DNA of 64,000 nucleotides from a virus. This document shows, piece by piece, positions 7,459-42,507 of this stretch; positions within the stretch are counted from its first letter, which is position 1; every line of letters starts with the position of its first letter. A program made the translations under genes and the position numbers. The stretch lies in IMG/VR virus record IMGVR_UViG_3300017917_002938, positions 99,544 through 163,543 of that record, one strand, 5' to 3'. The notes under the pieces are model-generated. The model saw only the letters and a list, made by a program, of their open reading frames with translations, was not told where the DNA came from and did not search any database.

Positions 7459-7632
7459 TTAAACCTCTCGCAAAAGAATACAATGGTCATAAAGTTCTAG
7501 AAGATCAACGTCAGATAGATCCTCCACCTCTTGGGGAGTCATGGAATATTCAGCCATCAACATATCTTCATCTAACGCAAAGAATATGTATTCGACTAAA
7601 AGTTCCCGAAGGGAGAGTTCAGTCTTTACCAT
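7459..7632 (-). CDS. Hypothetical acidic protein
   Basis: Start trimmed to MVKTEL. Confidence 0.55.
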   Translation of the reverse strand: MVKTELSLRELLVEYIFFALDEDMLMAEYSMTPQEVEDLSDVDLLELYDHCILLREV

Positions 7633-7633
7633 A

Positions 7634-8059
7634 TCAGTACCAAGTCCTATGTTCTTCAGCCACATGTTCGCGTCCATCATACTCATCAATGTACCACTTA
7701 ACATCATCTGGAATCTCTACAACAGCAAGTTCAGCAGCTACTCCATCAGCTTCACTACCCATCTCTTCAACTACTTGAACCAATGCTGGATCATGTCGTT
7801 CGATATCTCGTTCATAAAAACTCTGCGCAGAATACAACTTATTGTAAGCAACACGCTCTTCTCTAGACATGGCGCGCCATGCATCACCTTCTTTAGATTC
7901 AATGCGATCTTCTGGCTTAACTAGCCAGTAAGTCCAAAACTTCCAGTTACGGTTATTCTGTTCTGGGTATACAGTGATACCTTTGATCTCGAAGTATCGC
8001 ATAACAGCTTCATGACTCAAACCAAAGCCACCAAAGCATCTATTAATTACTACTTTCAT
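7634..8059 (-). CDS. Conserved phage hypothetical protein
   Basis: MKVVINRCFGGFGLS...RHDPALVQVVEE...IDEYDGRE pattern. Confidence 0.75.
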   Translation of the reverse strand: MKVVINRCFGGFGLSHEAVMRYFEIKGITVYPEQNNRNWKFWTYWLVKPEDRIESKEGDAWRAMSREERVAYNKLYSAQSFYERDIERHDPALVQVVEEMGSEADGVAAELAVVEIPDDVKWYIDEYDGREHVAEEHRTWY

Positions 8060-8298
8060 TCTTTAACTCCGAAACGTTCCTTGATATCATCAATTAATAT
8101 ACTCAGCCCATAATCTGATGCTTCACCACGCCTACAGTTTGAATACTCAAGCGCATCGATGAATTCATTTAGCAACAACTCGGCAAATTTTTCTACTTCT
8201 GATCCCAATAGGACGTTTGCCGATTCGTAGATGTCTTGGGATTTCAGAGCCTCTGCTGGCCTGCATGATCTGTAGATTTCAGTTAGTCGTTCGTTCAT
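8056..8298 (-). CDS. Hypothetical protein (MNER...EKFAEL type)
   Basis: Tiled ORF. Confidence 0.6.
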   Translation of the reverse strand: MNERLTEIYRSCRPAEALKSQDIYESANVLLGSEVEKFAELLLNEFIDALEYSNCRRGEASDYGLSILIDDIKERFGVKE

Positions 8299-25189: not shown

Positions 25190-27723
25190 CCGAAAAATGC
25201 CTCCAGGTTATTTCTTTTTTCAACATGCCATCCAATAGTGTTTAGAATAGACTGTAGTGGATCAATAAAAGCTTTTTCAAATTGCTTATTATAGTCAATA
25301 TAGCTATCTAAGTTCAACTCTTTAGGTAGTTTACCCGGGGTCGAGATAACATGCTCTCCAATATAGTTAGGGGTCTTGAGATAACAGAATTTTATCTTCT
25401 CACCTCTATTAACTAAATCGTATTTTTTATCCAGCTGTTTTTGCTTTAAGAAGTGATTATATAGTAGTGCGCCTTTAACATGAATAGGAGTACCGGTCTT
25501 GAATATAGTGTTAACATCTTGCCATTTTCCTAACTCTTTACACCCTCTAGGAAACGCCACAACATCAAATGGTTGTTGGAAGAAGTTGTCTTTAGTCTGT
25601 TCGACAAACTTAATCAAATCATCTTCCGTATCATTCATAATAATATTAAACGCTTTGGTAATCGATTCTTTTACGATAGCAGGAGTAGAAGAGCGTACCG
25701 CCTCTACACCCATCATCTTAAGTTTAGGTTCTTTATACCTTACGCCTTCGTTGTCATGTACGTTTAAGATGTAGCGTTTCTTAGCAATAAAAATTCCTTT
25801 GTCAGCAATAGCCTCACGCTTCATCTTCATCTTCTGATCGTAAGCGTTTACATATACTGCAAGTTCATCGTATTGTTTGTCAATGAAAGGTTCAAGCGCT
25901 GACTGGCAATACTTGTCAATCATCTCGATGATCTTTTCTTTTGAGGGAGATTGTTGACCCTCGAAAGCTTTCTTAATAAAAGGACCAAAGTCAATATACA
26001 TCGAGTCAGTATCAACAGCAATTACATAATCTACACCCTGTGTTTTGAGTGCTTTGTTGAAGTACTCATTAATCTTGTTCTCTATCCAACGAATAGATAA
26101 TTGACCGGACTTAGTAATAGACTCAGCAAAGCGAGTATCAAACCATCTGAAGAACTTATTAGCCAAAGCACCATAAGCAGAGTTTAACTGAATCTTTTTC
26201 GCAAGCTGCATATTATGGCAGCGAGCGATCTCCTTTTCCAACTCATACGTCTTTTCTTTCTCATACTTACGTTTGGCATCGAGCATTTCGTTCTTGAATT
26301 TGACACGGTCATTGTACATCTTCTCCATTAGCTTAGGAAGGAATCCTTGGCGGTCTCTGTCATAATAACATCCACTTGCTGCTACGGTGTAGTTGCACGA
26401 TAACATCTCATTACGAATTCCAAAATCGTTCAGAGCACCGCCAAGAATTTTTTCAACACCCTCAGAGGTTGCAAGGGAACTAAAGGTACCCTTATACGTC
26501 TCTGGTGAAATATTATACTGCATAATAAGGTGAGGGTATAAGCTATTTAAGTCAAACGATACTACCCATTCATGCATTCCTACTTGAGGGTCTTTTACGT
26601 AAGCACCTACAATAGGTTCGTCTTTCTCTCGATCAGATGGATTAAACATAGGCACCACAACTTTCTGTTCGAGCAGATAGTTGTGGATAATAATGTCCCA
26701 CATGCGCACAGAGGTAAACGTATCTAAGTAGTTCACTTTACCGTCATATGCTAGAGCAAAGACTTGGTCAATAAATTTAAGCTTATCGTCTAACTTATAA
26801 ACCAGCTCTACATCTCGAATATTATACTCCATGTATTTCTGAAAGTCTTTTTCATAAAACTCAGTCAGGTTTTCATATCCAAGTGCTTGATAGTCTAACT
26901 TACGCTCCCCTAATACCACAAACGCAATATGGTCTAGTTTATAGGACTCCTGCATGGTGAAAGAGAATTTTCGGTACAGTTGTAGGTAATCAAGAATAGT
27001 AATACCAACAATGACTGGTATGGTATACTGTTTACCTACAATTTCAACTTCCCGTTCAGTTAACAATCCCCATGGTGAGAGACGTTTAGCTGCTTCAATC
27101 CCTTTAAGTCTAGTGATGCGATTGAGTAGATAAGGCATATCAAAGAACTCAACGTTCCATCCTGTAATAATATCAGGGAGGAATTGTTTTGATCGCCATA
27201 CAGTAATAAATTTTTCTAACAGGTCGTTCTCATCCTTACATTTTAGATAAGTGATGTTAGGATTGTCTGTTTTGAATTCGTGATATCCGAACGCAATAGA
27301 CTTACTGTTTTTAGTGAGCGTGATAGCAGTGACAGCTCTATCCGCTACTGAGATGTCAGGGAAGCCTCCATCAGCCTCGATCTCAATATCAATTACAACT
27401 GTAGAGATTAGCTTGGGATCATAGTCTATCACGCCAGGATAGTGATCGTTAATAAATTGGTACAGGTAATTGGTAAGACCGTATAAGGTTTTACCTGACA
27501 CATTTTCATTCTCTTGTTTGTAGTTGCGAGCTTCGTAAACAGAGTCAAACTCTTTCTTGAAGACGGTCTTACCTTCAAGAGTTTTATATTCGTCTAGACT
27601 GACGCGATCGGTAGTGAAGAGATAAGGCTTGAGAGGGATCGATTTGTGTATTCGTTGCCCGTTCTCAAAACCTCTTAGTAGAATCTCATTCTTATGTAAA
27701 TGAACATTAGTATAAAAGTTCAT
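25186..27723 (-). CDS. 43: DNA polymerase, family B (T4 gp43)
   Basis: ExoI DIE, TGWN..FD, FDLNSLYP, KKIQLNSAYG, DTDS, KKRY, C-terminal clamp-binding LEAFF. Confidence 0.97.
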   Translation of the reverse strand: MNFYTNVHLHKNEILLRGFENGQRIHKSIPLKPYLFTTDRVSLDEYKTLEGKTVFKKEFDSVYEARNYKQENENVSGKTLYGLTNYLYQFINDHYPGVIDYDPKLISTVVIDIEIEADGGFPDISVADRAVTAITLTKNSKSIAFGYHEFKTDNPNITYLKCKDENDLLEKFITVWRSKQFLPDIITGWNVEFFDMPYLLNRITRLKGIEAAKRLSPWGLLTEREVEIVGKQYTIPVIVGITILDYLQLYRKFSFTMQESYKLDHIAFVVLGERKLDYQALGYENLTEFYEKDFQKYMEYNIRDVELVYKLDDKLKFIDQVFALAYDGKVNYLDTFTSVRMWDIIIHNYLLEQKVVVPMFNPSDREKDEPIVGAYVKDPQVGMHEWVVSFDLNSLYPHLIMQYNISPETYKGTFSSLATSEGVEKILGGALNDFGIRNEMLSCNYTVAASGCYYDRDRQGFLPKLMEKMYNDRVKFKNEMLDAKRKYEKEKTYELEKEIARCHNMQLAKKIQLNSAYGALANKFFRWFDTRFAESITKSGQLSIRWIENKINEYFNKALKTQGVDYVIAVDTDSMYIDFGPFIKKAFEGQQSPSKEKIIEMIDKYCQSALEPFIDKQYDELAVYVNAYDQKMKMKREAIADKGIFIAKKRYILNVHDNEGVRYKEPKLKMMGVEAVRSSTPAIVKESITKAFNIIMNDTEDDLIKFVEQTKDNFFQQPFDVVAFPRGCKELGKWQDVNTIFKTGTPIHVKGALLYNHFLKQKQLDKKYDLVNRGEKIKFCYLKTPNYIGEHVISTPGKLPKELNLDSYIDYNKQFEKAFIDPLQSILNTIGWHVEKRNNLEAFFG

Positions 27724-31095: not shown

Positions 31096-31752
31096 TTATT
31101 CAGTAAATGCAGAAGTAGCCTCAGTGGCTACCCAATACGTTACGTCCTTTCCTTTAAACTCTCCGATACCTCTTTTTGAGATCTTTACTGAATAGTCTCC
31201 GGGCAGGAACTTAACGTTATCAGCTCTGAATATCATTTTAAACTTTATAGAGGTATCATTCAACCTGATTCTGAACGTATCAGAAGTACTATTCTTCGAA
31301 TCGCTAGCTTCAAGATACATCGATCCATCTTCACCTACTACCGCTAGTTCAGGTAGTTGCATCACTCCCATAGCTTTGAGAACCGATTGCAGTTGGGCCT
31401 CACTTAGATCAAACTCTATTTCTGCTTCGGGCATAGTAATCTCTTTAGTGGGGGTAACTACCAAAGAGGGATCGGCAAAAGTATAGTTGACCTTAGCCGT
31501 GTCTGATTTGATCACCATATGCTTATCCTTCACTTCTAGTTCTGGTGAAGTGAAGAGAGAAAGCACCCCAAGAAAACGTGATATATCGTAAATGGCAAAG
31601 CCTCCGGTCAGATCTTCTTGAACGGATGCTTTTGCCATGATAGTCTTGTTAGGAGAACATGTAGTAAGGTTCTTACCCGGCTTAAAGACGATTGAGGGGT
31701 TGATGGTGGAAAAATTCTTCAAAATTTGTAAGGTACGACCTTCCAGTTTCAT
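31096..31752 (-). CDS. 45: Sliding clamp (gp45)
   Basis: LKNFSTINPSI, FAIYDISRFL, YWVATE; synteny. Confidence 0.92.
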   Translation of the reverse strand: MKLEGRTLQILKNFSTINPSIVFKPGKNLTTCSPNKTIMAKASVQEDLTGGFAIYDISRFLGVLSLFTSPELEVKDKHMVIKSDTAKVNYTFADPSLVVTPTKEITMPEAEIEFDLSEAQLQSVLKAMGVMQLPELAVVGEDGSMYLEASDSKNSTSDTFRIRLNDTSIKFKMIFRADNVKFLPGDYSVKISKRGIGEFKGKDVTYWVATEATSAFTE

Positions 31753-32637: not shown

Positions 32638-33132
32638 TTATACTCCGTATTTTTTATCGTGTTGTTTGCCGATGCCGTAATCGCCATCGTATGAAGAAAG
32701 AGATTCAGAATCAAATAATATAAATTGACCTACTCGAGTACCTCTTTTAATTCTTGCAGGGCCAGAAGTTACGTGTAGTACTCCTGCCATAACTCCGTGG
32801 TAACCAGAGTCATAAAGACCGGAAGTAATGTATACGCCGTTACGGTTTAGAGTAGAACGTGTTATAACCCAACCAGCTTCCCCTTCACCTAATTGAACGA
32901 TGTTCTCCATAACAATCTCATAAGAGCCTGGTTTAAGAAAGAAGAATCCTTCAGGGTCAGTTTTAAGTTCTAAAGTCCCGCGGTGTTTTTTGTCTTCGTT
33001 GGAAATCTGGAATACCTTATCGCTAATTGCAAAGACTTTGTCTAGTCTAAGATCGACGGCATTAGGTTGACTGTCACCCTCTCGTACTTGGGTAAGGGTT
33101 GACTTAGAGTTAGGTCCAAGTATATGTTTCAA
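32638..33132 (-). CDS. Trimeric dUTPase / dCTP-deaminase-fold protein
   Basis: PNAVDLR, TRSTLNR, GLYDSGYHG, RVGQ; catalytic Glu of dCTP deaminases not evident. Confidence 0.8.
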   Translation of the reverse strand: MKHILGPNSKSTLTQVREGDSQPNAVDLRLDKVFAISDKVFQISNEDKKHRGTLELKTDPEGFFFLKPGSYEIVMENIVQLGEGEAGWVITRSTLNRNGVYITSGLYDSGYHGVMAGVLHVTSGPARIKRGTRVGQFILFDSESLSSYDGDYGIGKQHDKKYGV

Positions 33133-33764
33133 TTATCATCTCCGAAATAATATGGATTTTCCACAGTCCTGAATTCAGCAACCGGGTCCAGTAGTTTGCT
33201 ATCAAGTCGCATCAACAACACTTTGTTTGCGTCGGTAGGGTTACTACCTTCAAATCTTGTTGATGAAATATTTAGCTCAGAATCATAGAACATTGGTGAT
33301 ATTTCATTTCTAAACAAAAATAATTGTTTACCTTTATGCATTAGACAACTAAACGTACCATCAATATCGTTTAGAGCATCCCATCCGTCATTAATTATTT
33401 CATGCATTAGTAATAAAGTATCCCAGTCCTTCAACCAACTATGCTTTTCGTGTAATTTTTTTATCTGATTGGTTTTTAGTATACCATTATGCCATAGATG
33501 GTCGTTTGTAAATGTGGCAGGATGAATAGAGTCAATACTTTTATTATCGGTAGTAGGAGCTTGTACGTGTACAATTCCATACCAACCTTCGGGTATATTA
33601 ATTTTACTCTCTTTAATAGGTCCTAGTTCCTGAGCCGTAACAATAAAGATTTTACTGGTAGGATTATAAAGAGAGAAAGAATGGGAGTGTTGTCCTCTAT
33701 ATGAGTTCAGCTTTACTAACTCTTTAAGAGTATCGGTATCAAAAGATCCTACAATTGCACACAT
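33129..33764 (-). CDS. Stand-alone class-II (Ntn) glutamine amidotransferase
   Basis: Start trimmed to MCAIVG (nucleophilic Cys2); RG, HP, HNGIL, DT, IDGTFS. Confidence 0.8.
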   Translation of the reverse strand: MCAIVGSFDTDTLKELVKLNSYRGQHSHSFSLYNPTSKIFIVTAQELGPIKESKINIPEGWYGIVHVQAPTTDNKSIDSIHPATFTNDHLWHNGILKTNQIKKLHEKHSWLKDWDTLLLMHEIINDGWDALNDIDGTFSCLMHKGKQLFLFRNEISPMFYDSELNISSTRFEGSNPTDANKVLLMRLDSKLLDPVAEFRTVENPYYFGDDN

Positions 33765-33765
33765 A

Positions 33766-34272
33766 TTACATTCCAAAGTAATGTTTGAGTTTAATTATAG
33801 TCTCTTCTGCTGTTCTATGCAAGCTTCCTGAACCTCCATTATCCTCAAAACGAAGTACAACATCATCGGTATCATCAATGATGAATGAGTCTTTAGTAGC
33901 GTAGGCAGACTTAAACCGTCTTCCAGGTACCGTAATAACTTGATATGGAATATCGTGCTTCTCGATCCATTTTAGCTTCTGATCAGTTACAGTGTTATGA
34001 AAGTCAAACCCCCCTGTAGAGGTTAGAATAGACTTTTGGACGTTGCCAGGAATTGTTCTGATAAACTCTAACAACTCTTCTGCTCCAGGGTACATTTCTA
34101 GTTTAGTAAACCCGTCATTATCAATAAACTTTGCCCAGCAATTGGAGTAGGTGGTGTGAGCACCAGCTTTCCTGGCATCTCTCACCTCTTTAGGAGACAT
34201 GCCAAACATATCGGTGAAGCCTTTTTCAAAATTGGAGAGAACTCCGTCCATGTCAATGTAGAGATATTTCAT
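33766..34272 (-). CDS. HAD-family 5'(3')-deoxyribonucleotidase-like
   Basis: YIDMDGVL, ILTS, K..W, IIDD. Confidence 0.8.
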   Translation of the reverse strand: MKYLYIDMDGVLSNFEKGFTDMFGMSPKEVRDARKAGAHTTYSNCWAKFIDNDGFTKLEMYPGAEELLEFIRTIPGNVQKSILTSTGGFDFHNTVTDQKLKWIEKHDIPYQVITVPGRRFKSAYATKDSFIIDDTDDVVLRFEDNGGSGSLHRTAEETIIKLKHYFGM

Positions 34273-35033
34273 TATGAGTACTTTGCAATAAGATTTACCC
34301 AGTCAATGTTAATAGAGTAAGGTATCGGGTCTTTAATACCTACCTTGGCGAAATTAGCGATACGTTCCGAACAAGAAGGACACTTTCCACAACTTCTTCC
34401 CTCTTCGTCTGGATCATAACATGTTAAAGTAAAATCAAATCTAACTCCACCCAATTCTTCAGCAATTTTAATCTCATGCTCTTTTGATAGATGACTGAAT
34501 GGTGCTAGTAGCTCTACTTTGTGAGTTCGATTCTGTGCTGCTACTGCATTCATACTATCGACAAACTTTTGAGATGTGTCCCAGTAACCATACTCATCAT
34601 GCACTTGAAGACCAGTGAACACATGAGACGCTTTATTTGCTTCTGCAAATGAAAATGCTAGTGAGTTAAGAATCATATTACGAAACGGTACGTAAGTCTT
34701 AGGCTGAGGATCTCCGAGAACCTCTTTGATAGTAGGCATTGCTACATTGGTTCCACCGATATTAGCGGATACTTCCTTTACTATATCGCCAAGGATGCTA
34801 AGATCTAGAATCTTATGCTTGACGCCTCCGAGGTAGTTACATGTCATTGCTGCCATCTGTAACTCTCGTTTCTGCTTCTGCCCGTAATTATACGACAACG
34901 CAAATACCCTACTCCTACCATACTTCTTAACAAGCAAGTAGGTCATTATAGTAGAGTCAAGACCTCCAGATAAAACCGATACAACGTTATGCTCAGTTTC
35001 CGGTAGGATTTGAAGTGCTTGTTCTAAGTTCAT
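34272..35033 (-). CDS. queC: 7-cyano-7-deazaguanine synthase QueC
   Basis: SGGLDST, YGQK, TYVPFRN, TCY...CGKCPSC.ER Zn site. Confidence 0.93.
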   Translation of the reverse strand: MNLEQALQILPETEHNVVSVLSGGLDSTIMTYLLVKKYGRSRVFALSYNYGQKQKRELQMAAMTCNYLGGVKHKILDLSILGDIVKEVSANIGGTNVAMPTIKEVLGDPQPKTYVPFRNMILNSLAFSFAEANKASHVFTGLQVHDEYGYWDTSQKFVDSMNAVAAQNRTHKVELLAPFSHLSKEHEIKIAEELGGVRFDFTLTCYDPDEEGRSCGKCPSCSERIANFAKVGIKDPIPYSINIDWVNLIAKYS

Positions 35034-35247
35034 CTTTTAACCTTTCAACATATACTGCAGCATCTAGTAACTCTTCTTGTAAGTGCTGTAACCATCCCAT
35101 TAAATCAATATCAGTTCGTTCTGTAGTAGTTCCGTACTTTTTATATCCTGAAGACATTCGTTGCCAGAGCATTCTACGAACTGATTCAACATTCTTATCG
35201 ATAGGGATATCACTATACCCTTTTTCGTCTAGTTCAGAAGGATGCAT
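34993..35247 (-). CDS. MazG-like all-alpha NTP pyrophosphohydrolase
   Basis: GYKKYG...WLQHLQEELLDAAVY (EExxD). Confidence 0.6.
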   Translation of the reverse strand: MHPSELDEKGYSDIPIDKNVESVRRMLWQRMSSGYKKYGTTTERTDIDLMGWLQHLQEELLDAAVYVERLKDELRTSTSNPTGN

Positions 35248-36170
35248 TATTGTCTCGCAGTCTTGGTTGACACATTGAACACCCGGTACATAGGAGCTTT
35301 TCTCATTGCTAGCTCCATGCTAGTTGCCCGTACTGGATTAATATCGATACCGCCTCTTCTAGTATACAGACAAGCTACAAATAGTTCTTCAGGTTTAAGT
35401 AAGTCAAGCAAGCGCTTATAAATGCACTCACAAATCTCTTCGTGAAAATGATTTTCTTTACGCATGGAAACAATATACTTTAAAAGAGATTCAGGTGTAA
35501 CAGACTTCTCTCCCTTAATGTGAATGTATACATCGCCCCAGTCAGGTTGATTAGTTACTCGACAATTAGACCTTAAAGAGTTAGAGCGCCATGTTTCGTA
35601 TCGTCCTATGGATGGTACTACCTCAAGAATATCAGGACTCTCGTTATAGTCACTAAATACCATGTTGTTAACGTTACAGTAATTTTCAAGAGAAATAAAA
35701 TCTCCAACAATAGGTCTGGAGGTATCTACGTCTCCAATAGAGATTCCTACATCAACATTACCTCCTACTGCTGCACTTAAATCGTTAGAAATTCTTTCCT
35801 CAATATCCCATATGTCTTCATCTATATCAATGAGCTTAGCCATATTATAAGAGTTAAGATATAACTTAACTGACTTAGATTCTACGATGTTAGGGGTGTC
35901 TGAGGCATAAGTGAATTTTAACCAACCAGTAACAGGGAATCCATTCTTACGTAAGGTAGAAAACTCATAAGCATTCCATACATCAAACCCTTCGAAAGGA
36001 AGACTGTCTTCTTCGATGCCATATTGAGTTCGATTAAGTGAACGAGGTACTCCTACTAACAGAGTAGGATCAACATCGTCTGGGGTTACATACGGTTTAA
36101 CTACAGTTCCATCCCCCGCTTTACCTAGGTGAACCGATACCAGTTTATTAAGTTCTTCTTGATTACTCAT
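35247..36170 (-). CDS. queF: NADPH-dependent preQ0 reductase QueF (bimodular type)
   Basis: QueF motif IVESKSVKLYLNS; catalytic SNCRVTNQPD; FHEE; YTRRGGIDINP. Confidence 0.93.
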   Translation of the reverse strand: MSNQEELNKLVSVHLGKAGDGTVVKPYVTPDDVDPTLLVGVPRSLNRTQYGIEEDSLPFEGFDVWNAYEFSTLRKNGFPVTGWLKFTYASDTPNIVESKSVKLYLNSYNMAKLIDIDEDIWDIEERISNDLSAAVGGNVDVGISIGDVDTSRPIVGDFISLENYCNVNNMVFSDYNESPDILEVVPSIGRYETWRSNSLRSNCRVTNQPDWGDVYIHIKGEKSVTPESLLKYIVSMRKENHFHEEICECIYKRLLDLLKPEELFVACLYTRRGGIDINPVRATSMELAMRKAPMYRVFNVSTKTARQ

Positions 36171-36703
36171 TATCTTCCTTCCAGTAAGTCTATAATTTTA
36201 TTCACTCGATTACGCACCGAACCTTGAACTCGGTGCATGGATAATCTTTTTTTCTCAATTATACTTTCAAACAGCTCAGCAATATCATCTCTGAACTTAA
36301 GATCAGTACTTCTTGTTCCGTCGTTCTCAATTGGAAACTCTGGTTCAATATAAAACACATGGTCATATTGAGTCCATACTTTATCAAACACATCAGTAAC
36401 ATACTTCAATGTTGGCATATTTACTTTAGCATTTTTATAAAGATAGGTAGTATATACTAGCCCATCCAGCACTGTTCGATCAGTAAGCATATTTTCGTGC
36501 ATGAACACATTTACAATATGCTCGTTCATGATCAGTCGCTGGGTATTATCAGTACCATCTTCGTTGATTGGTAATCCATAACTTTTTACCCTGCGAGTAA
36601 CCTCGTCACAAATAGTATAATTCTGAAATATTTTTTCTGAGCGTAATCCATTCAGTAAAGTAGTTTTACCTACAGACTGCGCTCCTGTGATTCCAATTCT
36701 CAT
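36170..36703 (-). CDS. P-loop nucleotide kinase-like protein (NadR/AAA_28-type)
   Basis: ITGAQSVGKTT, TDRTVLD, DGTR. Confidence 0.75.
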   Translation of the reverse strand: MRIGITGAQSVGKTTLLNGLRSEKIFQNYTICDEVTRRVKSYGLPINEDGTDNTQRLIMNEHIVNVFMHENMLTDRTVLDGLVYTTYLYKNAKVNMPTLKYVTDVFDKVWTQYDHVFYIEPEFPIENDGTRSTDLKFRDDIAELFESIIEKKRLSMHRVQGSVRNRVNKIIDLLEGR

Positions 36704-37326
36704 CCTAGTAATAACCTCGTCTGTAAAAAATCAACCCATAGATCAATAGATTTTATTTTAAGTTCATTGATAAGTTCTTCTTCTGTCATGCCTGGTGTGA
36801 TTACTTGGTGATGTATACGAAGAATCTCTCCCTCATCAACCCCTGGAGTAACTTTATGAATTATTGTACCTGTGGAAGGAAGACCCAGTTCTATTGCTTT
36901 TCTTTGTGGGTCTTTACCTTTAAGTTGAGGGTATGTGATGATGTCTCCTGGATGACCGTTATACATCTCAAACATATTACATACACCTGCAGGAATAATT
37001 CTTAAGTAACCATGTAGAGTTATTATCCACCCTGCAGGTTCTACACTATCCAGGAACGCCATGATAGAGTCATGATGCCAGGCTGCAACGTTACATTCAC
37101 GCATAAACGGATGCCAGGTTTCTTCCTTCATATTATTGGTAAATATGACGGTAGGTTTACGATTAAGTTTGTTGCATATTCCTGCGATCTCAGAACCAGA
37201 TTGGCTGAACATGCAAGCCCAGCTCGGTTCCCTTATAGTGATATCTGCATCGCTGGAATCAACATTAACCGTTAACGATTGCTCTGAAACATTCGACGTT
37301 ATAGGTAATGCGATTGAGTTCGTCAT
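36700..37326 (-). CDS. PurN-like formyltransferase (candidate preQ1 formyltransferase, DpdN-like)
   Basis: FSQSGSE, LHGYLRII, NGHPG, LKG, GTIIHKVTPGVDEG; located in the que cluster. Confidence 0.8.
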   Translation of the reverse strand: MTNSIALPITSNVSEQSLTVNVDSSDADITIREPSWACMFSQSGSEIAGICNKLNRKPTVIFTNNMKEETWHPFMRECNVAAWHHDSIMAFLDSVEPAGWIITLHGYLRIIPAGVCNMFEMYNGHPGDIITYPQLKGKDPQRKAIELGLPSTGTIIHKVTPGVDEGEILRIHHQVITPGMTEEELINELKIKSIDLWVDFLQTRLLLG

Positions 37327-38053
37327 CAGTCACCTCTTGGTTGATCATAGTAAATAATTTTTGAGAGGGTTTATCTTCTAACCCTTTAGCTCCATTATAG
37401 CGAATACCCTTTAATCCGGCAACTACAGGATTGGATGTATCAATAGTATCAATCCAGGAGAAGTCTCTGTAACTTGAGAACTCTTGAGGTAGACCGCATC
37501 CGAGTAAATGATGTGGCTTATTAGTGTTAATTATATCGGCGTGAAGCATTCGATGTAACATTGCATCTCGCCCGTGCATGTAATGATGAAACTTTGTAGG
37601 AAGTTTACCGTTTAGTTGTTCATTAACGAAAAAAGAATAATCAAAAGAAATAGCTACTTTGTCTACGTATGGTTCAATCTCTTGATAACACCAGATAATT
37701 TCATCGAGAGTTTTACCTTGCACTACACCAATAACTTCTGAAGGGAAGTCATAAGTCCAGTTCTTGATATTACTTACCGTACGTTCAGCATCTTCCAATG
37801 CATCAGGGATAATATAAGCTGAAGGCTTAAGCTTCTCAATCCACTTTGAGAACTTATCAGCATCAAATGCCTCTCCTAATTCAAAGATTGAATTATCGAG
37901 AAGAACGTAACGTCCTTTTTTTACTGCTTTATGAAAAAGATCATAGTATTCTTCACTCTCCTCAAACAAATGAACTAATGCGTAGTCATAGTCTGTTACT
38001 TCTTGTATTCGAGGAAAAATAGAGATGGGTGCTTCATGTGCAATCTTAATCAT
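37265..38053 (-). CDS. TGT-fold base-exchange protein (DpdA3-like)
   Basis: TGT-like motif order LLDNS / IPD / VVQG / HLLG / IDTS with both catalytic-Asp equivalents; located in the que cluster. Confidence 0.65.
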   Translation of the reverse strand: MIKIAHEAPISIFPRIQEVTDYDYALVHLFEESEEYYDLFHKAVKKGRYVLLDNSIFELGEAFDADKFSKWIEKLKPSAYIIPDALEDAERTVSNIKNWTYDFPSEVIGVVQGKTLDEIIWCYQEIEPYVDKVAISFDYSFFVNEQLNGKLPTKFHHYMHGRDAMLHRMLHADIINTNKPHHLLGCGLPQEFSSYRDFSWIDTIDTSNPVVAGLKGIRYNGAKGLEDKPSQKLFTMINQEVTDDELNRITYNVECFRAIVNG

Positions 38054-38432
38054 TCAGTTCAGCCTTTTCACGTTCGCGTTTCTTATAATAACGATCACTT
38101 AGTAGTGACATCTTCTCAATAATAGTATTAACTTGTTGTTGATTTAATACTACGATTTCCGTTACACCGGAAATTTTTTCTTCTAACCAAATATTTTTTG
38201 GATAGAATGCTTTAAAAGACTCTTCTATGCCTTTCATTTCATCAAGTGGGCCATAAATCGTTTTCATAATTTTAATGTCCCACTTTTCGTATTGCTCTGG
38301 AGAGTATTTGAACCTCTCCAGAGCATCATAGTTAGCGGTATGCCCGAACTTATAGAATTCTACCTTCCCTGTACTTTTGTTCGTAAACCGCGCCAAGTAT
38401 ACCTTGCCTGTCTTGCTCACTGATGTATTCAT
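38046..38432 (-). CDS. GIY-YIG-like (T5orf172-type) nuclease domain protein
   Basis: KVYL...FYKFGHT...ERF...E...GVTE. Confidence 0.55.
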   Translation of the reverse strand: MNTSVSKTGKVYLARFTNKSTGKVEFYKFGHTANYDALERFKYSPEQYEKWDIKIMKTIYGPLDEMKGIEESFKAFYPKNIWLEEKISGVTEIVVLNQQQVNTIIEKMSLLSDRYYKKREREKAELND

Positions 38433-38709
38433 AAAATTTATCCTCGTCGTCTACATCATCAATAAATTCTCTTTGATCAAATCTTTTCTCCTGTATAGTT
38501 TTTTCTTTGAAAAACTTTCTCGGGTTACCACACAAATGACATTTAGGATCTCCACAATTGGTTGCATGCATTTTATGGACGCGATGTGGTTGTTTTGAAA
38601 CTTTTTCCGATAAAAAGTATTTACCTGCGATCTTAATTTGTTTTTTTATTTTCACCGACTTCTGGTGAATTCTCTCGCTGTGTTTTAGTTTGTCTAATTC
38701 GTTCGACAT
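38350..38709 (-). CDS. Hypothetical Cys/His-rich protein
   Basis: PHRVHKMHATNCGDPKCHLCGNPRK. Confidence 0.6.
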   Translation of the reverse strand: MSNELDKLKHSERIHQKSVKIKKQIKIAGKYFLSEKVSKQPHRVHKMHATNCGDPKCHLCGNPRKFFKEKTIQEKRFDQREFIDDVDDEDKFYEYISEQDRQGILGAVYEQKYREGRIL

Positions 38710-38863
38710 TAGCTCTCCTACACTCTTCTTTTACTTGTACAGGATAGTCCGGGCTCATTTCAACCAGACTACAATTGTAGTATCTTCCTTGGGGCTGATT
38801 TTCTCCTATTAAAAATGATAACCCTAGTAAGGTGATTAGAAGTATAGGAAGAGCTAACTTCAT
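38633..38863 (-). CDS. Small exported protein
   Basis: Signal/TM, then YNCSLVEMSPDYPVQVKEECR. Confidence 0.6.
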   Translation of the reverse strand: MKLALPILLITLLGLSFLIGENQPQGRYYNCSLVEMSPDYPVQVKEECRRANVERIRQTKTQRENSPEVGENKKTN

Positions 38864-39147
38864 GTTAACATCCTTACTAGACCTATAGTATCTATCGTAG
38901 TTAGCAAGATGTAGTTAGCAAGCATCCCAAAAGATTTCCTACTATAAGCAGCCCAAGCATAGATAGCGCAGCCAGCAATCCACACAGGATAAAGAGCCAA
39001 GAGGGGAGGGTTTGGTACGGTAAGTGCCATTGTAATGCTACACCCAATACTAATAGCCCAAGCAAGAAGCTCGGCAACAAAGCGAGTAGGATGAGAGTTC
39101 CAGTCATCTTTTATCCATTTAAAGGTGTTAAGTAATATATCGTTCAT
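38860..39147 (-). CDS. Small multi-TM membrane protein
   Basis: Three hydrophobic segments. Confidence 0.7.
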   Translation of the reverse strand: MNDILLNTFKWIKDDWNSHPTRFVAELLAWAISIGCSITMALTVPNPPLLALYPVWIAGCAIYAWAAYSRKSFGMLANYILLTTIDTIGLVRMLT

Positions 39148-39401
39148 ACTTTCTTGCCTTCACCGGCAAGAAAGTAGTTAGTTACTTTTGACATCATCGT
39201 TGCTTTGGAATTAACCTGCTTAATAAGATTGGTAAATTTAAGTTTGGTTTCAGCTTTACCTGTCGATTCTTCGATTGTTTGAATACACAATAGACGAAAA
39301 TCTTCTGCCGGCATACTGGTGAAGCTTTCAAAGATATATTTCATTCTTTCTTCACCAATACCGTCATGTTTTACGCGTACGCGAGAACTATTTTGAGTCA
39401 T
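39144..39401 (-). CDS. Hypothetical protein
   Basis: Start trimmed to MTQNSS (AAAGG RBS) downstream of the promoter. Confidence 0.6.
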   Translation of the reverse strand: MTQNSSRVRVKHDGIGEERMKYIFESFTSMPAEDFRLLCIQTIEESTGKAETKLKFTNLIKQVNSKATMMSKVTNYFLAGEGKKV

Positions 39402-39432
39402 AATACCTTTCGTTATAGATGATCTTATTTTC

Positions 39433-39461
39433 ATTATAACTGAAGGTGGAATTAAAATCAA
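39433..39461 (-). promoter_or_regulatory. Early-type promoter inside the que island
   Basis: TTGATTTTAATTCCACCTTCAGTTATAAT (TTGATT-17-TATAAT). Confidence 0.75.
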
Positions 39462-39464
39462 GAG

Positions 39465-40163
39465 TTATTTACAAGCATATTGTTGTTGTAGCATAATATT
39501 GTCAAAGAACTCTTTCTTAGCTGCACTATCGGTCTGAAACAATCCATGTAATACTGTCGTCTGCGTTAGTGAACTATGAGCCATAATTCCTCTATTCTCG
39601 CAACAACCATGCGTGGCTTGAACGTATACAGCTACGTCATCACTATCTGTTGCCTTCATGATTTCTCGCGCAATGTCGTTACAAAGTTCTTCTTGCAACG
39701 TTCCTCGTCTTGCGCACCATTGGGCGATCCGAGTATACTTTGATAAACCAATAAGTTTATTAGCTGCGATAATTCCGATATACGCCACACCAACAACAGG
39801 TTGGTGATGGTGAGAACACATACTACGAAGCTCAGAACGCACAACCAACATACCCTCATATCGATCTTCTGAATCATTTGGAAAAGCCGTTGCATCGGGG
39901 GCGTGTTCATATCTGCCTGCCATTATTTCGTTATAGTACATTTTAGCCAAACGACGAGCTGTACCTTTAGAGTTAGGATCATTTTCACGGTCAATTAATA
40001 AACGATCAAGAACCGTTTCAAATGCTTCAGTTGCTTCTTCAATTAGTTGTTCTTTCATTCTATCATCTAGAATATATTCACTAATATTATCACCAGCCCA
40101 GAAGCGCTTGCCGTCGCGCTTCATATTTTCTCTAATTACTTGACTTAGATTCTTTTCTGACAT
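39465..40163 (-). CDS. folE: GTP cyclohydrolase I FolE
   Basis: SMCSHH, GLSKYTR, LQEEL, ATHGCCENRG. Confidence 0.95.
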   Translation of the reverse strand: MSEKNLSQVIRENMKRDGKRFWAGDNISEYILDDRMKEQLIEEATEAFETVLDRLLIDRENDPNSKGTARRLAKMYYNEIMAGRYEHAPDATAFPNDSEDRYEGMLVVRSELRSMCSHHHQPVVGVAYIGIIAANKLIGLSKYTRIAQWCARRGTLQEELCNDIAREIMKATDSDDVAVYVQATHGCCENRGIMAHSSLTQTTVLHGLFQTDSAAKKEFFDNIMLQQQYACK

Positions 40164-40165
40164 TA

Positions 40166-40666
40166 TCACTCCGCAAATAAATCTTCATTCCACTCACGAT
40201 GACCTTCTCTATAAGCCATATTAGATTGTGTCTCTCTTACCTCTACTCTGAAGCACCATAGACGTTCGGCTTCCCCTGGACCCCAGAAGTCAGGAATATA
40301 AACACCGTTAACATACTTGTATAGTTGATCGGCTAGTCCCTCACATCCTAGTTTAGGTAAAATGGTTAACTTAGCCATTTTACGTCGCTCAAGCTCTTTA
40401 TACATCTCTAGTTCAGGATCATCTTGTGCAACTAGCAATGTATGATCAAATTGACTTTCCAGTACACCCTTAAGCTCTTTAAGACCACCGTAGTCTGCCA
40501 CCCAGTTACGAGCATCCAGTGTATCGGTACCAAAATAAAACTTCATACTGAAAGAGTATCCATGAATTAAATTACAATGAGAGTCGGCTCTCCATTGACG
40601 GTATGCGCATGGAAATGCATCATGATATTCTTTTGTGCTAACGTATTTGTAAGTAATAGGTGTCAT
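40166..40666 (-). CDS. queD: 6-carboxytetrahydropterin synthase QueD
   Basis: HCNLIHGYS, DYGGLK, FDHT, VEVRETQSN. Confidence 0.88.
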   Translation of the reverse strand: MTPITYKYVSTKEYHDAFPCAYRQWRADSHCNLIHGYSFSMKFYFGTDTLDARNWVADYGGLKELKGVLESQFDHTLLVAQDDPELEMYKELERRKMAKLTILPKLGCEGLADQLYKYVNGVYIPDFWGPGEAERLWCFRVEVRETQSNMAYREGHREWNEDLFAE

Positions 40667-41097
40667 ATTTTCTCCCACCAAAAGTCAATCCAATTAGGAA
40701 TGAAATTTCTGTCAATCCTCCACCCGTGATAGGTGGGCGTGATAAGTTGCTGATCGGAATTGTATATCAGTGTAGCGGTGTCCATCTTACCATACGCTTC
40801 CATAATTTCTACCATGGTCTGGCCAGAGTCAATAATATCATCCACCAGTAATGTATCAGCATCAAGCTCAGCTGAAGCATCAAACATAACTGGTCTATCT
40901 TTTGACCACTCTAAACAATAAAACGGTAGTTTGATATGGTGGCTGATAATTACTGCGGGTATAACTCCACCCCTTGCAATACCTACTACCTTATTATACT
41001 TTCTATCAGACTCTCTTATTTCTTTAATCATTTTCTGTAGGTGAGATCTCATTACTGTCTCACCATAGTACAGAGCATTGCTCTTTTCGTCTATCAT
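40663..41097 (-). CDS. Type I purine phosphoribosyltransferase (Gpt-like)
   Basis: GIARGGVIPA, PRPP loop LLVDDIIDSGQT, WIDFWWE. Confidence 0.85.
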   Translation of the reverse strand: MIDEKSNALYYGETVMRSHLQKMIKEIRESDRKYNKVVGIARGGVIPAVIISHHIKLPFYCLEWSKDRPVMFDASAELDADTLLVDDIIDSGQTMVEIMEAYGKMDTATLIYNSDQQLITPTYHGWRIDRNFIPNWIDFWWEKI

Positions 41098-41945
41098 TAA
41101 GTTCCCCACTCATTTTTAAAGAGAGGTACTTGTAATCTGTCAGAGTAGCGGTAACCTCTCTTCATCGCTAACTCTGCTACACGTCTGTTATTCAGAACAT
41201 AAACGGATTCTACTCCTCCTACCGGCATTAAATAAACCGGACCTCTGAACCCTGCTTGTCTATATTCACTTACTGCTCTATCAGCCTCTTCAGCATCCTC
41301 TTCCGTAGCTACAACGAACTTAAGGTATGCATATCCGTACCATTCGTACATAGCCACAATATCGGGACAAATAGCATCTTCCCATTTTTCTCCTGATACG
41401 GATAGTTTAGGAGAGATAGAAAACGTAAGTTGGTCTCGTCTCTTTTTTGTCCAGTTATCGTTAAGATACTTTCTAAATTCGTTAGAAAGATCTTGCGTAC
41501 CGTTCGTTTCAAAGGTTAGTTCTTTAAGTTGAACCATCTTAGGGTGATTGAGCAGATCTGGATATGATCGCTGCCATCCTAGTAAAGGTTCACCTCCAGT
41601 AATTACCAGATGTTCGTCTTTCCATTCCTTGTACGGAAGGATATCCATAATTGAATCGGCCAGACCATCAGTAGATACCACAGGGCTAAGATGCTTAAAA
41701 CGAACATCCCAGCTAGCATAGCTGTCACAGCCCGTGCTAACCAAAGGAAGTGCTTTGTAGTCTGAATAATCTTGAGGGTTAATTTTGAGGTGCTCATCAC
41801 TTTTTTGTCCTTTAGGCATTCCAAAACCTGAGCAAGTGAAGTTACATCCGAATGTTCTTAAAAAGACGGATGGGACACCCATGTAGCGTCCTTCACCTTG
41901 AATGGAGTAGAATAACTCCGCGACTTTAATTTTCGACAATTTCAT
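41097..41945 (-). CDS. queE: 7-carboxy-7-deazaguanine synthase QueE (radical SAM)
   Basis: FYSIQGEG, FLRTFGCNFTC...CDS, ITGGEP, ETNGT, SPKL, YLMP, RLQV. Confidence 0.92.
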   Translation of the reverse strand: MKLSKIKVAELFYSIQGEGRYMGVPSVFLRTFGCNFTCSGFGMPKGQKSDEHLKINPQDYSDYKALPLVSTGCDSYASWDVRFKHLSPVVSTDGLADSIMDILPYKEWKDEHLVITGGEPLLGWQRSYPDLLNHPKMVQLKELTFETNGTQDLSNEFRKYLNDNWTKKRRDQLTFSISPKLSVSGEKWEDAICPDIVAMYEWYGYAYLKFVVATEEDAEEADRAVSEYRQAGFRGPVYLMPVGGVESVYVLNNRRVAELAMKRGYRYSDRLQVPLFKNEWGT

Positions 41946-42507
41946 CTCCTAGTTTACGTGGAAGGGCACGTGATAGTTTATATAGCTCGTCAACAGTTCC
42001 TTCAAGGGTTCTTTTCAGCTTCCTGTTACGATTTTTTTCTTGACGAGCGGCGCGTTCATAGTGAATTCTATTAGCTCTTGTAGTATAATCTACTCCGTTT
42101 AAATGATCCAGTTCGTGCTGAATACAACGTGCAGTCATACCAATAAATTTCTCAGTAACCGTTTCACCTGTGTGCTTTGTATAACGAATCCTGATGAATG
42201 CTGGACGTTTAATTTTTACAAAAAAGTTTGGGCGAGACAGACAACCTTCTTCCAGTAGCACCGTTTCAGTTGATGTGTCCACAATTCTAGGATTGAACAA
42301 TACCAAAGGCTGTTCTGAATAGAGAGCGAAGACACTATAAGGCAAGCCTACTTGGTTGGCTGCCAGCCCAATTCCTTTATACTTAATCATAGTCTCAATT
42401 AAATCATTCGCTAGTTCAGCGGGATTCATTGGAGGATCTTGAAAGTCAAATTTTTGTGTAGGAGTGTTCAGAATAGGAGCTGAACAACTTAATATATCAC
42501 GAATCAT
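41926..42507 (-). CDS. def: Peptide deformylase
   Basis: GIGLAANQVG, EEGCLS, QHELDHLNG. Confidence 0.93.
   Translation of the reverse strand: MIRDILSCSAPILNTPTQKFDFQDPPMNPAELANDLIETMIKYKGIGLAANQVGLPYSVFALYSEQPLVLFNPRIVDTSTETVLLEEGCLSRPNFFVKIKRPAFIRIRYTKHTGETVTEKFIGMTARCIQHELDHLNGVDYTTRANRIHYERAARQEKNRNRKLKRTLEGTVDELYKLSRALPRKLGDEIVEN

Follow-up and report, generated by a model that had tools for sequence, protein, structure and literature searches.

A DpdA3/DpdN formyl-preQ1 operon of a T4-like phage includes a nucleotide-kinase-type gene and may make its modified base before replication

Introduction

The window analyzed here, a 64,000-nucleotide stretch, forms the final part of an IMG/VR virus record 163.5 kb long (IMGVR_UViG_3300017917_002938, positions 99,544 to 163,543; CheckV completeness 93%). 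It carries an operon that encodes the complete preQ1 pathway together with a DpdA3-type 7-deazaguanine transglycosylase, a DpdN-like formyltransferase, a P-loop kinase-like protein (Kin) and a phosphoribosyltransferase (PRTase). Judged by its sequence, the operon represents the known DpdA3/DpdN formyl-preQ1 system in a T4-like phage, and the distribution of its kinase gene among related loci suggests that the modified base may be made before, rather than after, DNA replication.

Complete base replacements in other phages, including hydroxymethylcytosine (hmC) in T4, hydroxymethyluracil (hmU) in SPO1 and Z in S-2L, are made in the deoxynucleoside triphosphate (dNTP) pool. Genomes that are fully substituted with 7-deazaguanines resist most restriction enzymes, and how such genomes reach 100% is the question addressed by this locus.

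DpdA3 and DpdN were defined by Hutinet et al. (2023, PMC10516641), according to whom the DNA of Flavobacterium phage immuto_2-6A contains fdPreQ1 and no dG, that of Cellulophaga phage phiST contains 100% dDG, and that of Campylobacter phage CP220 is cited as 100% dADG. By the same account, DpdA1, DpdA2 and DpdA4 reach at most 30% replacement, with 0.1–30% of G modified in DpdA1 phages. Because every modified virus encodes a DpdA, those authors propose a post-replicative origin for every one of these modifications. [quoted passage not shown] Their article never mentions the terms kinase, phosphoribosyl, nucleotidase or pre-replicative, and kinases, PRTases and pyrophosphohydrolases are not discussed in it. 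We found no literature on DpdN or fdPreQ1 later than this study.

Results

A complete preQ1 pathway in a single tight operon

The operon occupies positions 32638–41945 of the window as one tight run of genes, all on the minus strand (Table 1). Stop/start overlaps of 1–13 nt link nearly all of these genes from 41945 down to 32638, as had been noticed in a first-pass annotation of this DNA. FolE, QueD, QueE and QueC, together with QueF, all lie within the run and thus complete the preQ1 pathway; the QueE-like gene has the same position in 65 related loci. The backbone of the genome is T4-like, with a gp45 clamp and a family-B polymerase in the window and a ribonucleotide reductase encoded outside it. 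A scan for promoters and terminators found sites no commoner than shuffling of the sequence produces, and no internal terminator stood out clearly.

The first-pass annotation had singled out four "pool enzymes" interleaved with the que genes. The open reading frames (ORFs) and their positions are as it described, and three of its family assignments stand, namely a Gpt-like PRTase between QueE and QueD, a P-loop kinase between the formyltransferase and QueF, and a HAD nucleotidase after QueC. The fourth, a MazG-like EExxD protein between QueF and QueC, does have that position and the sequence EELLD, but it is not MazG-like (see below).

Table 1 Features of the operon and of the replication genes in the window
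Feature	Position	Strand	Evidence
QueE-like radical-SAM 7-carboxy-7-deazaguanine synthase	41097..41945	-	48% identity to annotated QueE of Synechococcus phage BUCT-ZZ01; weak Fer4_12 match
Gpt-like (xanthine/guanine type) PRTase	40663..41109	-	PF00156 E 7.6e-11
QueD (6-carboxytetrahydropterin synthase)	40166..40681	-	PF01242 E 7.9e-14
FolE (GTP cyclohydrolase I)	39465..40169	-	PF01227 E 1.9e-40
Five small ORFs (105, 95, 76, 119, 128 aa)	38046..39461	-	function unassigned
DpdA3-type 7-deazaguanine transglycosylase, 262 aa	37265..38053	-	identity to immuto_2-6A DpdA; phrog_19058 E 7e-48
DpdN-like PurN-family formyltransferase	36700..37326	-	PF00551 E 1.7e-9; 46% identity to immuto DpdN
P-loop nucleoside/nucleotide-kinase-like protein (Kin)	36170..36703	-	AAA_28 E 5.6e-17; phrog_2107
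Bimodular QueF (preQ0 reductase)	35247..36170	-	QueF_N E 3.4e-31; QueF E 3e-20
84-aa two-helix protein	34993..35247	-	conserved motif; no named family
QueC (preQ0 synthase)	34272..35033	-	PF06508 E 8.5e-53
HAD-type 5'(3')-deoxyribonucleotidase-like protein	33766..34272	-	phrog_2643 E 1.8e-26; NT5C E 1.2e-4 (below cut-off)
Stand-alone class-II glutamine-amidotransferase (GATase)-like protein	33129..33776	-	GATase_6 E 2.5e-5 (below cut-off); phrog_12378 E 2.4e-44
dCTP-deaminase/dUTPase (Dcd)-family protein, last tightly coupled gene	32638..33132	-	PF22769 E 2.7e-15; NF002598 dUTPase E 4.5e-25 (below cut-off)
gp45 clamp	31096-31752
gp43-like family-B DNA polymerase, matched core (853-aa frame)	25585..26694	-	PF00136 E 1.1e-24 (record 125128-126237)

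The operon belongs to the DpdA3/DpdN system

The transglycosylase is 52.8% identical over its full length to the DpdA of immuto_2-6A and ~38% identical to the CP220 homologue. It has no Pfam match; its model (pLDDT 93.5) retrieves tRNA-guanine transglycosylases (TGTs) in Foldseek (E 8e-8, TM 0.60–0.68) and forms a minimal TGT barrel without the C-terminal zinc subdomain. Residues D53, D84, H182, G185 and D205 are invariant across the six clades compared, and the protein falls in the T4-like branch of the DpdA3 tree. Thus, the identity to the immuto_2-6A enzyme and the TGT fold in a high-confidence model bear out the earlier description of this protein as DpdA3-like. Charge and pI, considered as a sign against DNA binding, proved not to be discriminating (pI ~5.1, versus 5.6 for the DpdA1 of phage 9g).

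The gene for the DpdN-like formyltransferase lies immediately downstream of DpdA3, and the order DpdA3, DpdN, kinase, QueF is the same as in immuto_2-6A, the DNA of which contains fdPreQ1 and no dG; hence the assignment of the operon to the fdPreQ1 system. The two loci share the same gene families, with identities of 53% for DpdA3, 46% for DpdN, 47% for QueF, 34% for the kinase and 31% for the PRTase. They differ in that immuto_2-6A is a PolA myovirus with a PRA-PH pyrophosphohydrolase, whereas the window is T4-like (gp45, gp46, family-B polymerase), has no PRA-PH gene and contains in addition the 84-aa protein, the HAD protein, the stand-alone amidotransferase and the dUTPase-like gene. The Campylobacter Firehammervirus CP220 and phiST resemble the window in having a kinase-like P-loop gene adjoining DpdA3, with an NTP phosphohydrolase nearby, but they have no QueF and no formyltransferase, end in a different base and, in CP220, also lack the PRTase. 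The phosphohydrolases that flank DpdA3 are of three kinds: PRA-PH in immuto, MazG in phiST and HD in CP220.

Several metagenomic proteins join DpdA3 to another domain, either as true fusions or through gene-calling read-through. DpdA3 is joined to the DpdN formyltransferase in P0157 and P0214 (447 aa), to DUF3310 in P0243 and, weakly, P0265 (344 and 367 aa), and to a GNAT-like tail in P0213 (419 aa). No protein joining DpdA3 to the kinase turned up among the 150 best representatives, in 72 further loci, or in a search for longer proteins with the kinase profile, which gave one unrelated asparagine-synthase-like match.

A P-loop kinase or DUF3310 gene fills the slot between DpdN and QueF in all 69 loci compared

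IMG/VR was scanned three times with DpdA3 alignments, which returned hundreds of loci, and the best 80 of each scan were kept; a profile search of the whole library found DpdA3 in 3,668 representative clusters at 50% identity. By gene order, the loci fall into three types. Type A, T4-like and including the window, has the order QueE-PRTase-QueD-FolE ... DpdA3-DpdN-kinase-QueF-84aa-QueC-(HAD)-GATase-Dcd. Type B, which is immuto-like, has QueE-PRTase-FolE-PRA-PH-DpdA3-DpdN-kinase-QueF. Type C is again T4-like, lacks the PRTase, the kinase and the 84-aa gene, and carries a DUF3310 protein between DpdN and QueF.

Among the 69 loci in which both flanking genes are visible, the DpdN–QueF slot holds the P-loop kinase in 51 and a DUF3310 protein in 18; it is never empty and never holds both. 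On the DpdA3 tree, obtained with a quick IQ-TREE search, the slot changed between the two families at least four times. [quoted passage not shown] Thus, a DUF3310 protein takes the place of the window's kinase in 18 sister loci, although these proteins, known from sequence alone, measure 84–120 aa and lack the N-terminal half of gp1.7. Two unrelated families in one slot, one of them known only from a dGMP/dTMP kinase, would be expected if a modified dGMP must be phosphorylated, that is, if the base is swapped before replication.

The Kin family itself, in profile comparison with the PDB, matches deoxynucleoside kinase 8puu (E 2e-4), the ribosylnicotinamide-kinase domain of NadR and thymidylate kinases, and its P-loop, DR motif and lid arginines are invariant. 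The window protein shares 32–34% identity with the genes that adjoin DpdA3 in immuto (34%) and CP220. More widely, among 94 distinct DpdA3 loci with at least 3 kb on each side, a P-loop kinase-like gene lies within 5 kb of DpdA3 in 64 and a DUF3310 gene in 16. Divergent DpdA3 clades have an AAA_18 kinase-like gene beside DpdA3 (phiST, MA9V-3 and numerous loci of IMG/VR, where the three genes PRTase-Dcd-AAA_18 often stand together), and the DpdA3 of CP220 is accompanied by AAA_28 plus an HD-AAA_33 fusion. The co-occurrence suggested in the first-pass annotation is therefore seen for the kinase, which is near-constant with DpdA3 and absent from the DpdA1/DpdA2 phages of the phage database. The window contains no DUF3310 gene, the 93%-complete genome has no dNMP kinase of the T4 gp1 type, and no kinase was found elsewhere in the DUF3310-type records, which are fragments. 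The published scheme lacks what appears to be an integral component of DpdA3 modules, a function of the nucleotide-kinase type.

Beyond relatives of the immuto and CP220 type, carriers of Kin in the phage database are limited to Streptomyces Samistivirus-type phages and one Pseudomonas phage. In 89 Streptomyces phage records, among them phage Bmoc (L089, 6231-7618), the Kin gene directly follows an FkbM-type methyltransferase gene. Examined as a hidden DpdA3, this neighbor was rejected, as it is a genuine FkbM methyltransferase; the two proteins are possibly a separate nucleotide-modification pair. Other kinase-like proteins have unusual architectures. Locus L103 encodes a 370-aa ORF upstream of DpdA3 in which FolE is apparently fused to an AAA_18 kinase-like domain, the phiST/MA9V-3-type loci L094, L095 and L098 encode AAA_18 proteins of 304–328 aa after the PRTase-Dcd pair, and the metagenomic protein P0272 (480 aa) combines asparagine-synthase/GATase domains with a partial Kin-family match (E 3.6e-19).

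The PRTase is of the 6-oxopurine type and co-varies with the kinase

The best solved relatives of the PRTase are purine PRTase 1vdm and the E. coli xanthine-guanine PRTase (XGPRT) 1a95, and its best NCBIfam model is NF006613 xanthine PRTase (E 6.9e-10), for which it scores below the equivalog cut-off; the PF00156 match lies above its own cut-off. The motif for phosphoribosyl pyrophosphate (PRPP), VDDIIDSG, is invariant in 23 homologues, including D90, D94 and G96. An Hpt-type paralogue (TIGR01203, ~150 bits) fills the same slot in some sister loci, with 8 Hpt-like and 38 Gpt-like distinct sequences. As an Hpt-type enzyme can replace the Gpt-like one, the selected function of this slot is, by sequence comparison, predicted to be 6-oxopurine phosphoribosylation. 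PRTase and kinase were found together in 33 loci and jointly absent from 12, with the kinase alone in 5, which ties the PRTase to the DpdA3-associated kinase.

The PRTase family is rare in the phage database. Its 25 records include 9 DpdA3 phages of the immuto and phiST groups and a cyanophage with the order QueE-PRTase-QueD-FolE. This cyanophage, Synechococcus phage BUCT-ZZ01 (L005, ON615601.1 62323-80775), has the genes as a QueE-PRTase-x-QueD-FolE block without a DpdA3 match at E 1e-5; two unannotated genes of ~430 aa follow its FolE.

The 84-aa, HAD and dUTPase-like proteins

The 84-aa protein displays the conserved motif KYG...R.D...W..HLxEELxDAxxY, which contains a single EExxD, and it models as a two-helix hairpin. 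It has no Pfam match even at E 10, no NCBIfam match and, by profile against the PDB, no solved relative. Alignment with hhalign gave a probability of 0.1% for the PRA-PH/MazG-type proteins of sister loci and no link to DUF3310, a DUF1599 search of the genome gave no link either, and structure searches (Foldseek against the PDB; the Atlas by features and by shape) yielded no meaningful match. We therefore reject the view of this protein as MazG-like: sequence, profile, structure and language-model searches all fail to connect the two, and the modeled fold is a hairpin and not a four-helix bundle. The family is very large, with at least 8,000 homologues by profile search, and none of the 120 homologues listed carries a functional name. 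At DpdA3 loci the gene occurs only with the kinase (both in 21 loci, kinase only in 27, neither in 16, the 84-aa gene alone in 0). Homologues in phages NP1 and Halfdan sit in replication modules and not beside que genes.

The HAD protein has an N-terminal DxD motif (IDMDGV) and scores 22.5 bits against Pfam NT5C, for which the cut-off is 24.8. Its gene is present in 11 of 82 related loci, tracks neither the kinase nor the PRTase, and occurs in 212 phage records, mostly of Klebsiella/Enterobacter T4-like phages without que genes. This sporadic distribution, and its frequency where que genes are lacking, led us to reject the HAD nucleotidase as a specific part of the pathway, contrary to the step first assigned to it. 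Neither the 84-aa protein nor the HAD nucleotidase is counted here as a part of the modification route.

Near DpdA3 in many clades lies a Dcd/dUTPase-like gene, which we considered as a hidden dGTPase and then treated as ordinary, as the closest cultured relatives of the window's copy are found in phages without DpdA3. The protein is probably an ordinary dUTPase-type enzyme.

Further genes of the operon and of related loci

The five small ORFs (38046-39461) match no known family; the 105-aa ORF recurs in 20 related loci and the 128-aa ORF, which spans 38046-38432, overlaps the start of DpdA3 and has no Pfam, PHROG or NCBIfam match, in 16. The stand-alone amidotransferase-like gene (phrog_12378) directly follows QueC in 27 related loci, whereas in the window the HAD gene intervenes. 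It coexists with QueF, and it may be a split form of a Gat-QueC fusion or supply QueC with ammonia. Immediately upstream of QueE, at 41926-42507, is a peptide deformylase-like gene with EGCLS and HELDH motifs, the position of which is kept in 26 related T4-like loci. The type C loci L087 (9627-10334) and L046 (6146-6763) have a Vut_1/YhhQ-family membrane protein directly after QueC (PF02592, E ~1e-20). This family includes the protein by which bacteria import preQ0/preQ1; for a phage operon to contain a transporter of the precursor would be unusual. The T4-like locus L029 carries an NADPH-dependent FMN-reductase-like gene between QueD and FolE (7492-8193; PF03358, E 1.4e-15).

Discussion

The window contributes a T4-like member of a known system, and what is new relative to the literature is a mechanistic hypothesis, sharpened by the displacement of the kinase by DUF3310 proteins. 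By homology, FolE, QueD, QueE and QueC would convert GTP to preQ0, QueF would reduce preQ0 to preQ1, the PurN-like DpdN would formylate the amine of a small molecule, and DpdA3 would exchange guanine for 7-deazaguanine. Based on the gene content of these loci, we propose, with a probability of roughly 50%, that the base is made at the free-nucleotide level before replication, with a dedicated kinase and with the PRTase recycling guanine. The exchange would then take place on a free deoxyguanosine nucleotide or nucleoside rather than on completed DNA. The neighboring P-loop kinase, or in sister loci a DUF3310 protein of the T7 gp1.7 type, would phosphorylate the modified product towards the dNTP, which the family-B polymerase of the phage would incorporate, while the Gpt-like PRTase would convert the released guanine to GMP and so feed GTP back to FolE. 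Somewhat more tentatively, at a little under even odds, DpdA3 would be the first TGT-fold enzyme to swap the base in free deoxyguanosine, as a nucleotide or as a nucleoside, and, with the kinase, would define a third kind of pre-replicative purine-replacement pathway, one that is widespread in environmental phages.

Installation before replication is favored by the kinase slot, which is never empty in 69 loci and which, when not holding the P-loop kinase, holds the domain of the dGMP/dTMP kinase of T7. It fits the lack of a T4 gp1-type dNMP kinase in the genome, the genuine NTP phosphohydrolases beside DpdA3 in immuto, phiST and CP220, and the fact that no other complete replacement is known except from pathways that act on the nucleotide pool. 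Further support comes from the apparent DpdA3-DUF3310 fusion in P0243 and from the absence of the kinase family from DpdA1/DpdA2 phages. The DpdA1 cluster of Enterobacteria phage 9g (Queuovirinae) resembles the window in its FolE, QueD, QueE and QueC-type genes and in a TGT-fold DNA transglycosylase by the replication genes, but it has no kinase, PRTase, formyltransferase, QueF or MazG/pyrophosphohydrolase. The pool-level systems of T4 (gp42/gp56/gp1, hmC) and S-2L (PurZ/MazZ/DatZ, Z) share with these loci the principle that a modifying enzyme is paired with a nucleotide kinase of its own, and replacement is complete in the measured relatives. They differ in using a dNMP hydroxymethylase or a PurA-like synthetase, as opposed to a TGT-fold base exchanger, and in having a hydrolase for the canonical dNTP, an enzyme that is not identifiable in this genome. 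The inactivity of DpdA3 in E. coli and the cytoplasmic ADG nucleoside found with CP220 likewise support a pre-replicative exchange (PMC10516641).

Several observations weigh against this proposal. The 93%-complete genome has no recognizable MazG, PRA-PH or HD gene, and the 84-aa protein is not MazG-like; the removal of dGTP, a canonical need of pool replacement, is therefore left without a candidate. This also disposes of the first step of the route as originally drawn, the conversion of dGTP to dGMP by a MazG-like protein, so that of the earlier pre-replicative scheme the ties of kinase and PRTase to DpdA3 persist while its MazG and HAD steps fall away. The only pyrophosphatase-type gene in the genome is that of the Dcd/dUTPase-family protein, whose cultured relatives, as noted, point elsewhere. 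Neither kinase type is found within 5 kb of DpdA3 in 14 of the 94 distinct loci. Because locus L058 has both the kinase and a DUF3310 protein, the latter in the slot of the 84-aa protein, DUF3310 may be a substitute for that protein and not for the kinase. The Kin family also occurs beside FkbM methyltransferase genes in Streptomyces Samistivirus-type phages, and a nucleoside or nucleotide substrate is predicted for it by sequence resemblance. To our knowledge, all characterized TGT/DpdA enzymes use polynucleotides, and we know of none that acts on a mononucleotide. Finally, insertion after replication is what was proposed when DpdA3 was defined (PMC10516641), and a salvage loop from guanine via GMP to GDP, made up of the PRTase and the kinase, could serve an enzyme acting on DNA equally well.

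This last point leads to a quite possible alternative, in which DpdA3 exchanges G in replicated DNA and the guanine freed by each exchange, one per base, is returned via GMP (PRTase) and GDP (kinase) to the GTP, of which FolE would need stoichiometric amounts if the whole genome is to be substituted. The TGT fold of DpdA3, the characterized relatives of which act on tRNA or DNA, is in keeping with it, as is the published proposal (Hutinet et al. 2023, PMC10516641). It would also account for the co-variation of PRTase and kinase (33 loci with both, 12 with neither) and for the lack of a dGTP-removing enzyme, as expected if replication still needs dGTP; moreover, the invariant D94 after the PRPP motif, expected at the purine N7 by analogy with XGPRT/HGPRT, would favor guanine over a 7-deaza base. 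However, genes of the kinase type are kept more constantly than the PRTase, which is lacking from 5 loci with a kinase, from CP220 and from 12 DUF3310 loci, and T7 gp1.7, the sole characterized DUF3310 protein, acts on deoxy-NMPs (PMC11897194). Salvage also leaves the MazG, PRA-PH and HD proteins beside DpdA3 (phiST, immuto, CP220) without a clear role, and complete replacement by such a base exchange would be unprecedented, given the ceiling of 30% for DpdA1, DpdA2 and DpdA4 (PMC10516641).

All explanations other than installation on the free nucleotide and salvage after replication are, even taken together, unlikely. One would have the P-loop protein act on DNA, either as an ATPase partner of DpdA3, like DpdB, or as a DNA kinase similar to the 5-hydroxymethyldeoxyuridine (5-hmdU) DNA kinases. 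The bacterial DpdA does need the ATPase DpdB, DNA is the substrate of P-loop kinases in the hypermodification of thymidine, and the gene adjoins DpdA3 in many clades. We nevertheless consider this improbable: the profile of the protein resembles deoxynucleoside kinases, the NadR kinase domain and thymidylate kinases, with a DR motif and lid arginines, and the finding that the T7 gp1.7 domain can stand in for it suggests that it phosphorylates nucleotides. Slightly more improbable still is a route in which the PRTase couples PRPP with the 7-deazaguanine base to give a ribonucleotide, which the kinase raises to the diphosphate and the phage's ribonucleotide reductase, with NDP kinase, turns into the modified dNTP, with DpdA3 acting only as a proof-reader or a tRNA/DNA back-up. 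PRTase, kinase and ribonucleotide reductase are indeed all encoded in the genome, and the PRTase sits among the que genes of T4-like, immuto-like and phiST-like loci and of cyanophage BUCT-ZZ01. But the PRTase is absent from CP220, with its 100% dADG, and from all 12 DUF3310-type loci in which its slot is visible, so it is not a core step; the universal gene is DpdA3; and, by analogy, the PRTase family appears to keep the catalytic acid that pairs with N7.

If the salvage explanation were true, the locus would be an ordinary new member of a described system. If, instead, the base is installed on the free nucleotide, DpdA3 and the kinase would offer a short way of making analogues of 7-deaza-dGTP with enzymes, for which sequencing and synthetic biology have uses, and the need for a kinase may explain why DpdA3 alone failed in E. 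coli. A class of substrates new to the TGT superfamily would be added, the rule that the presence of a DpdA means post-replicative modification would fail, and the published model for fully 7-deazaguanine-substituted genomes would be overturned.

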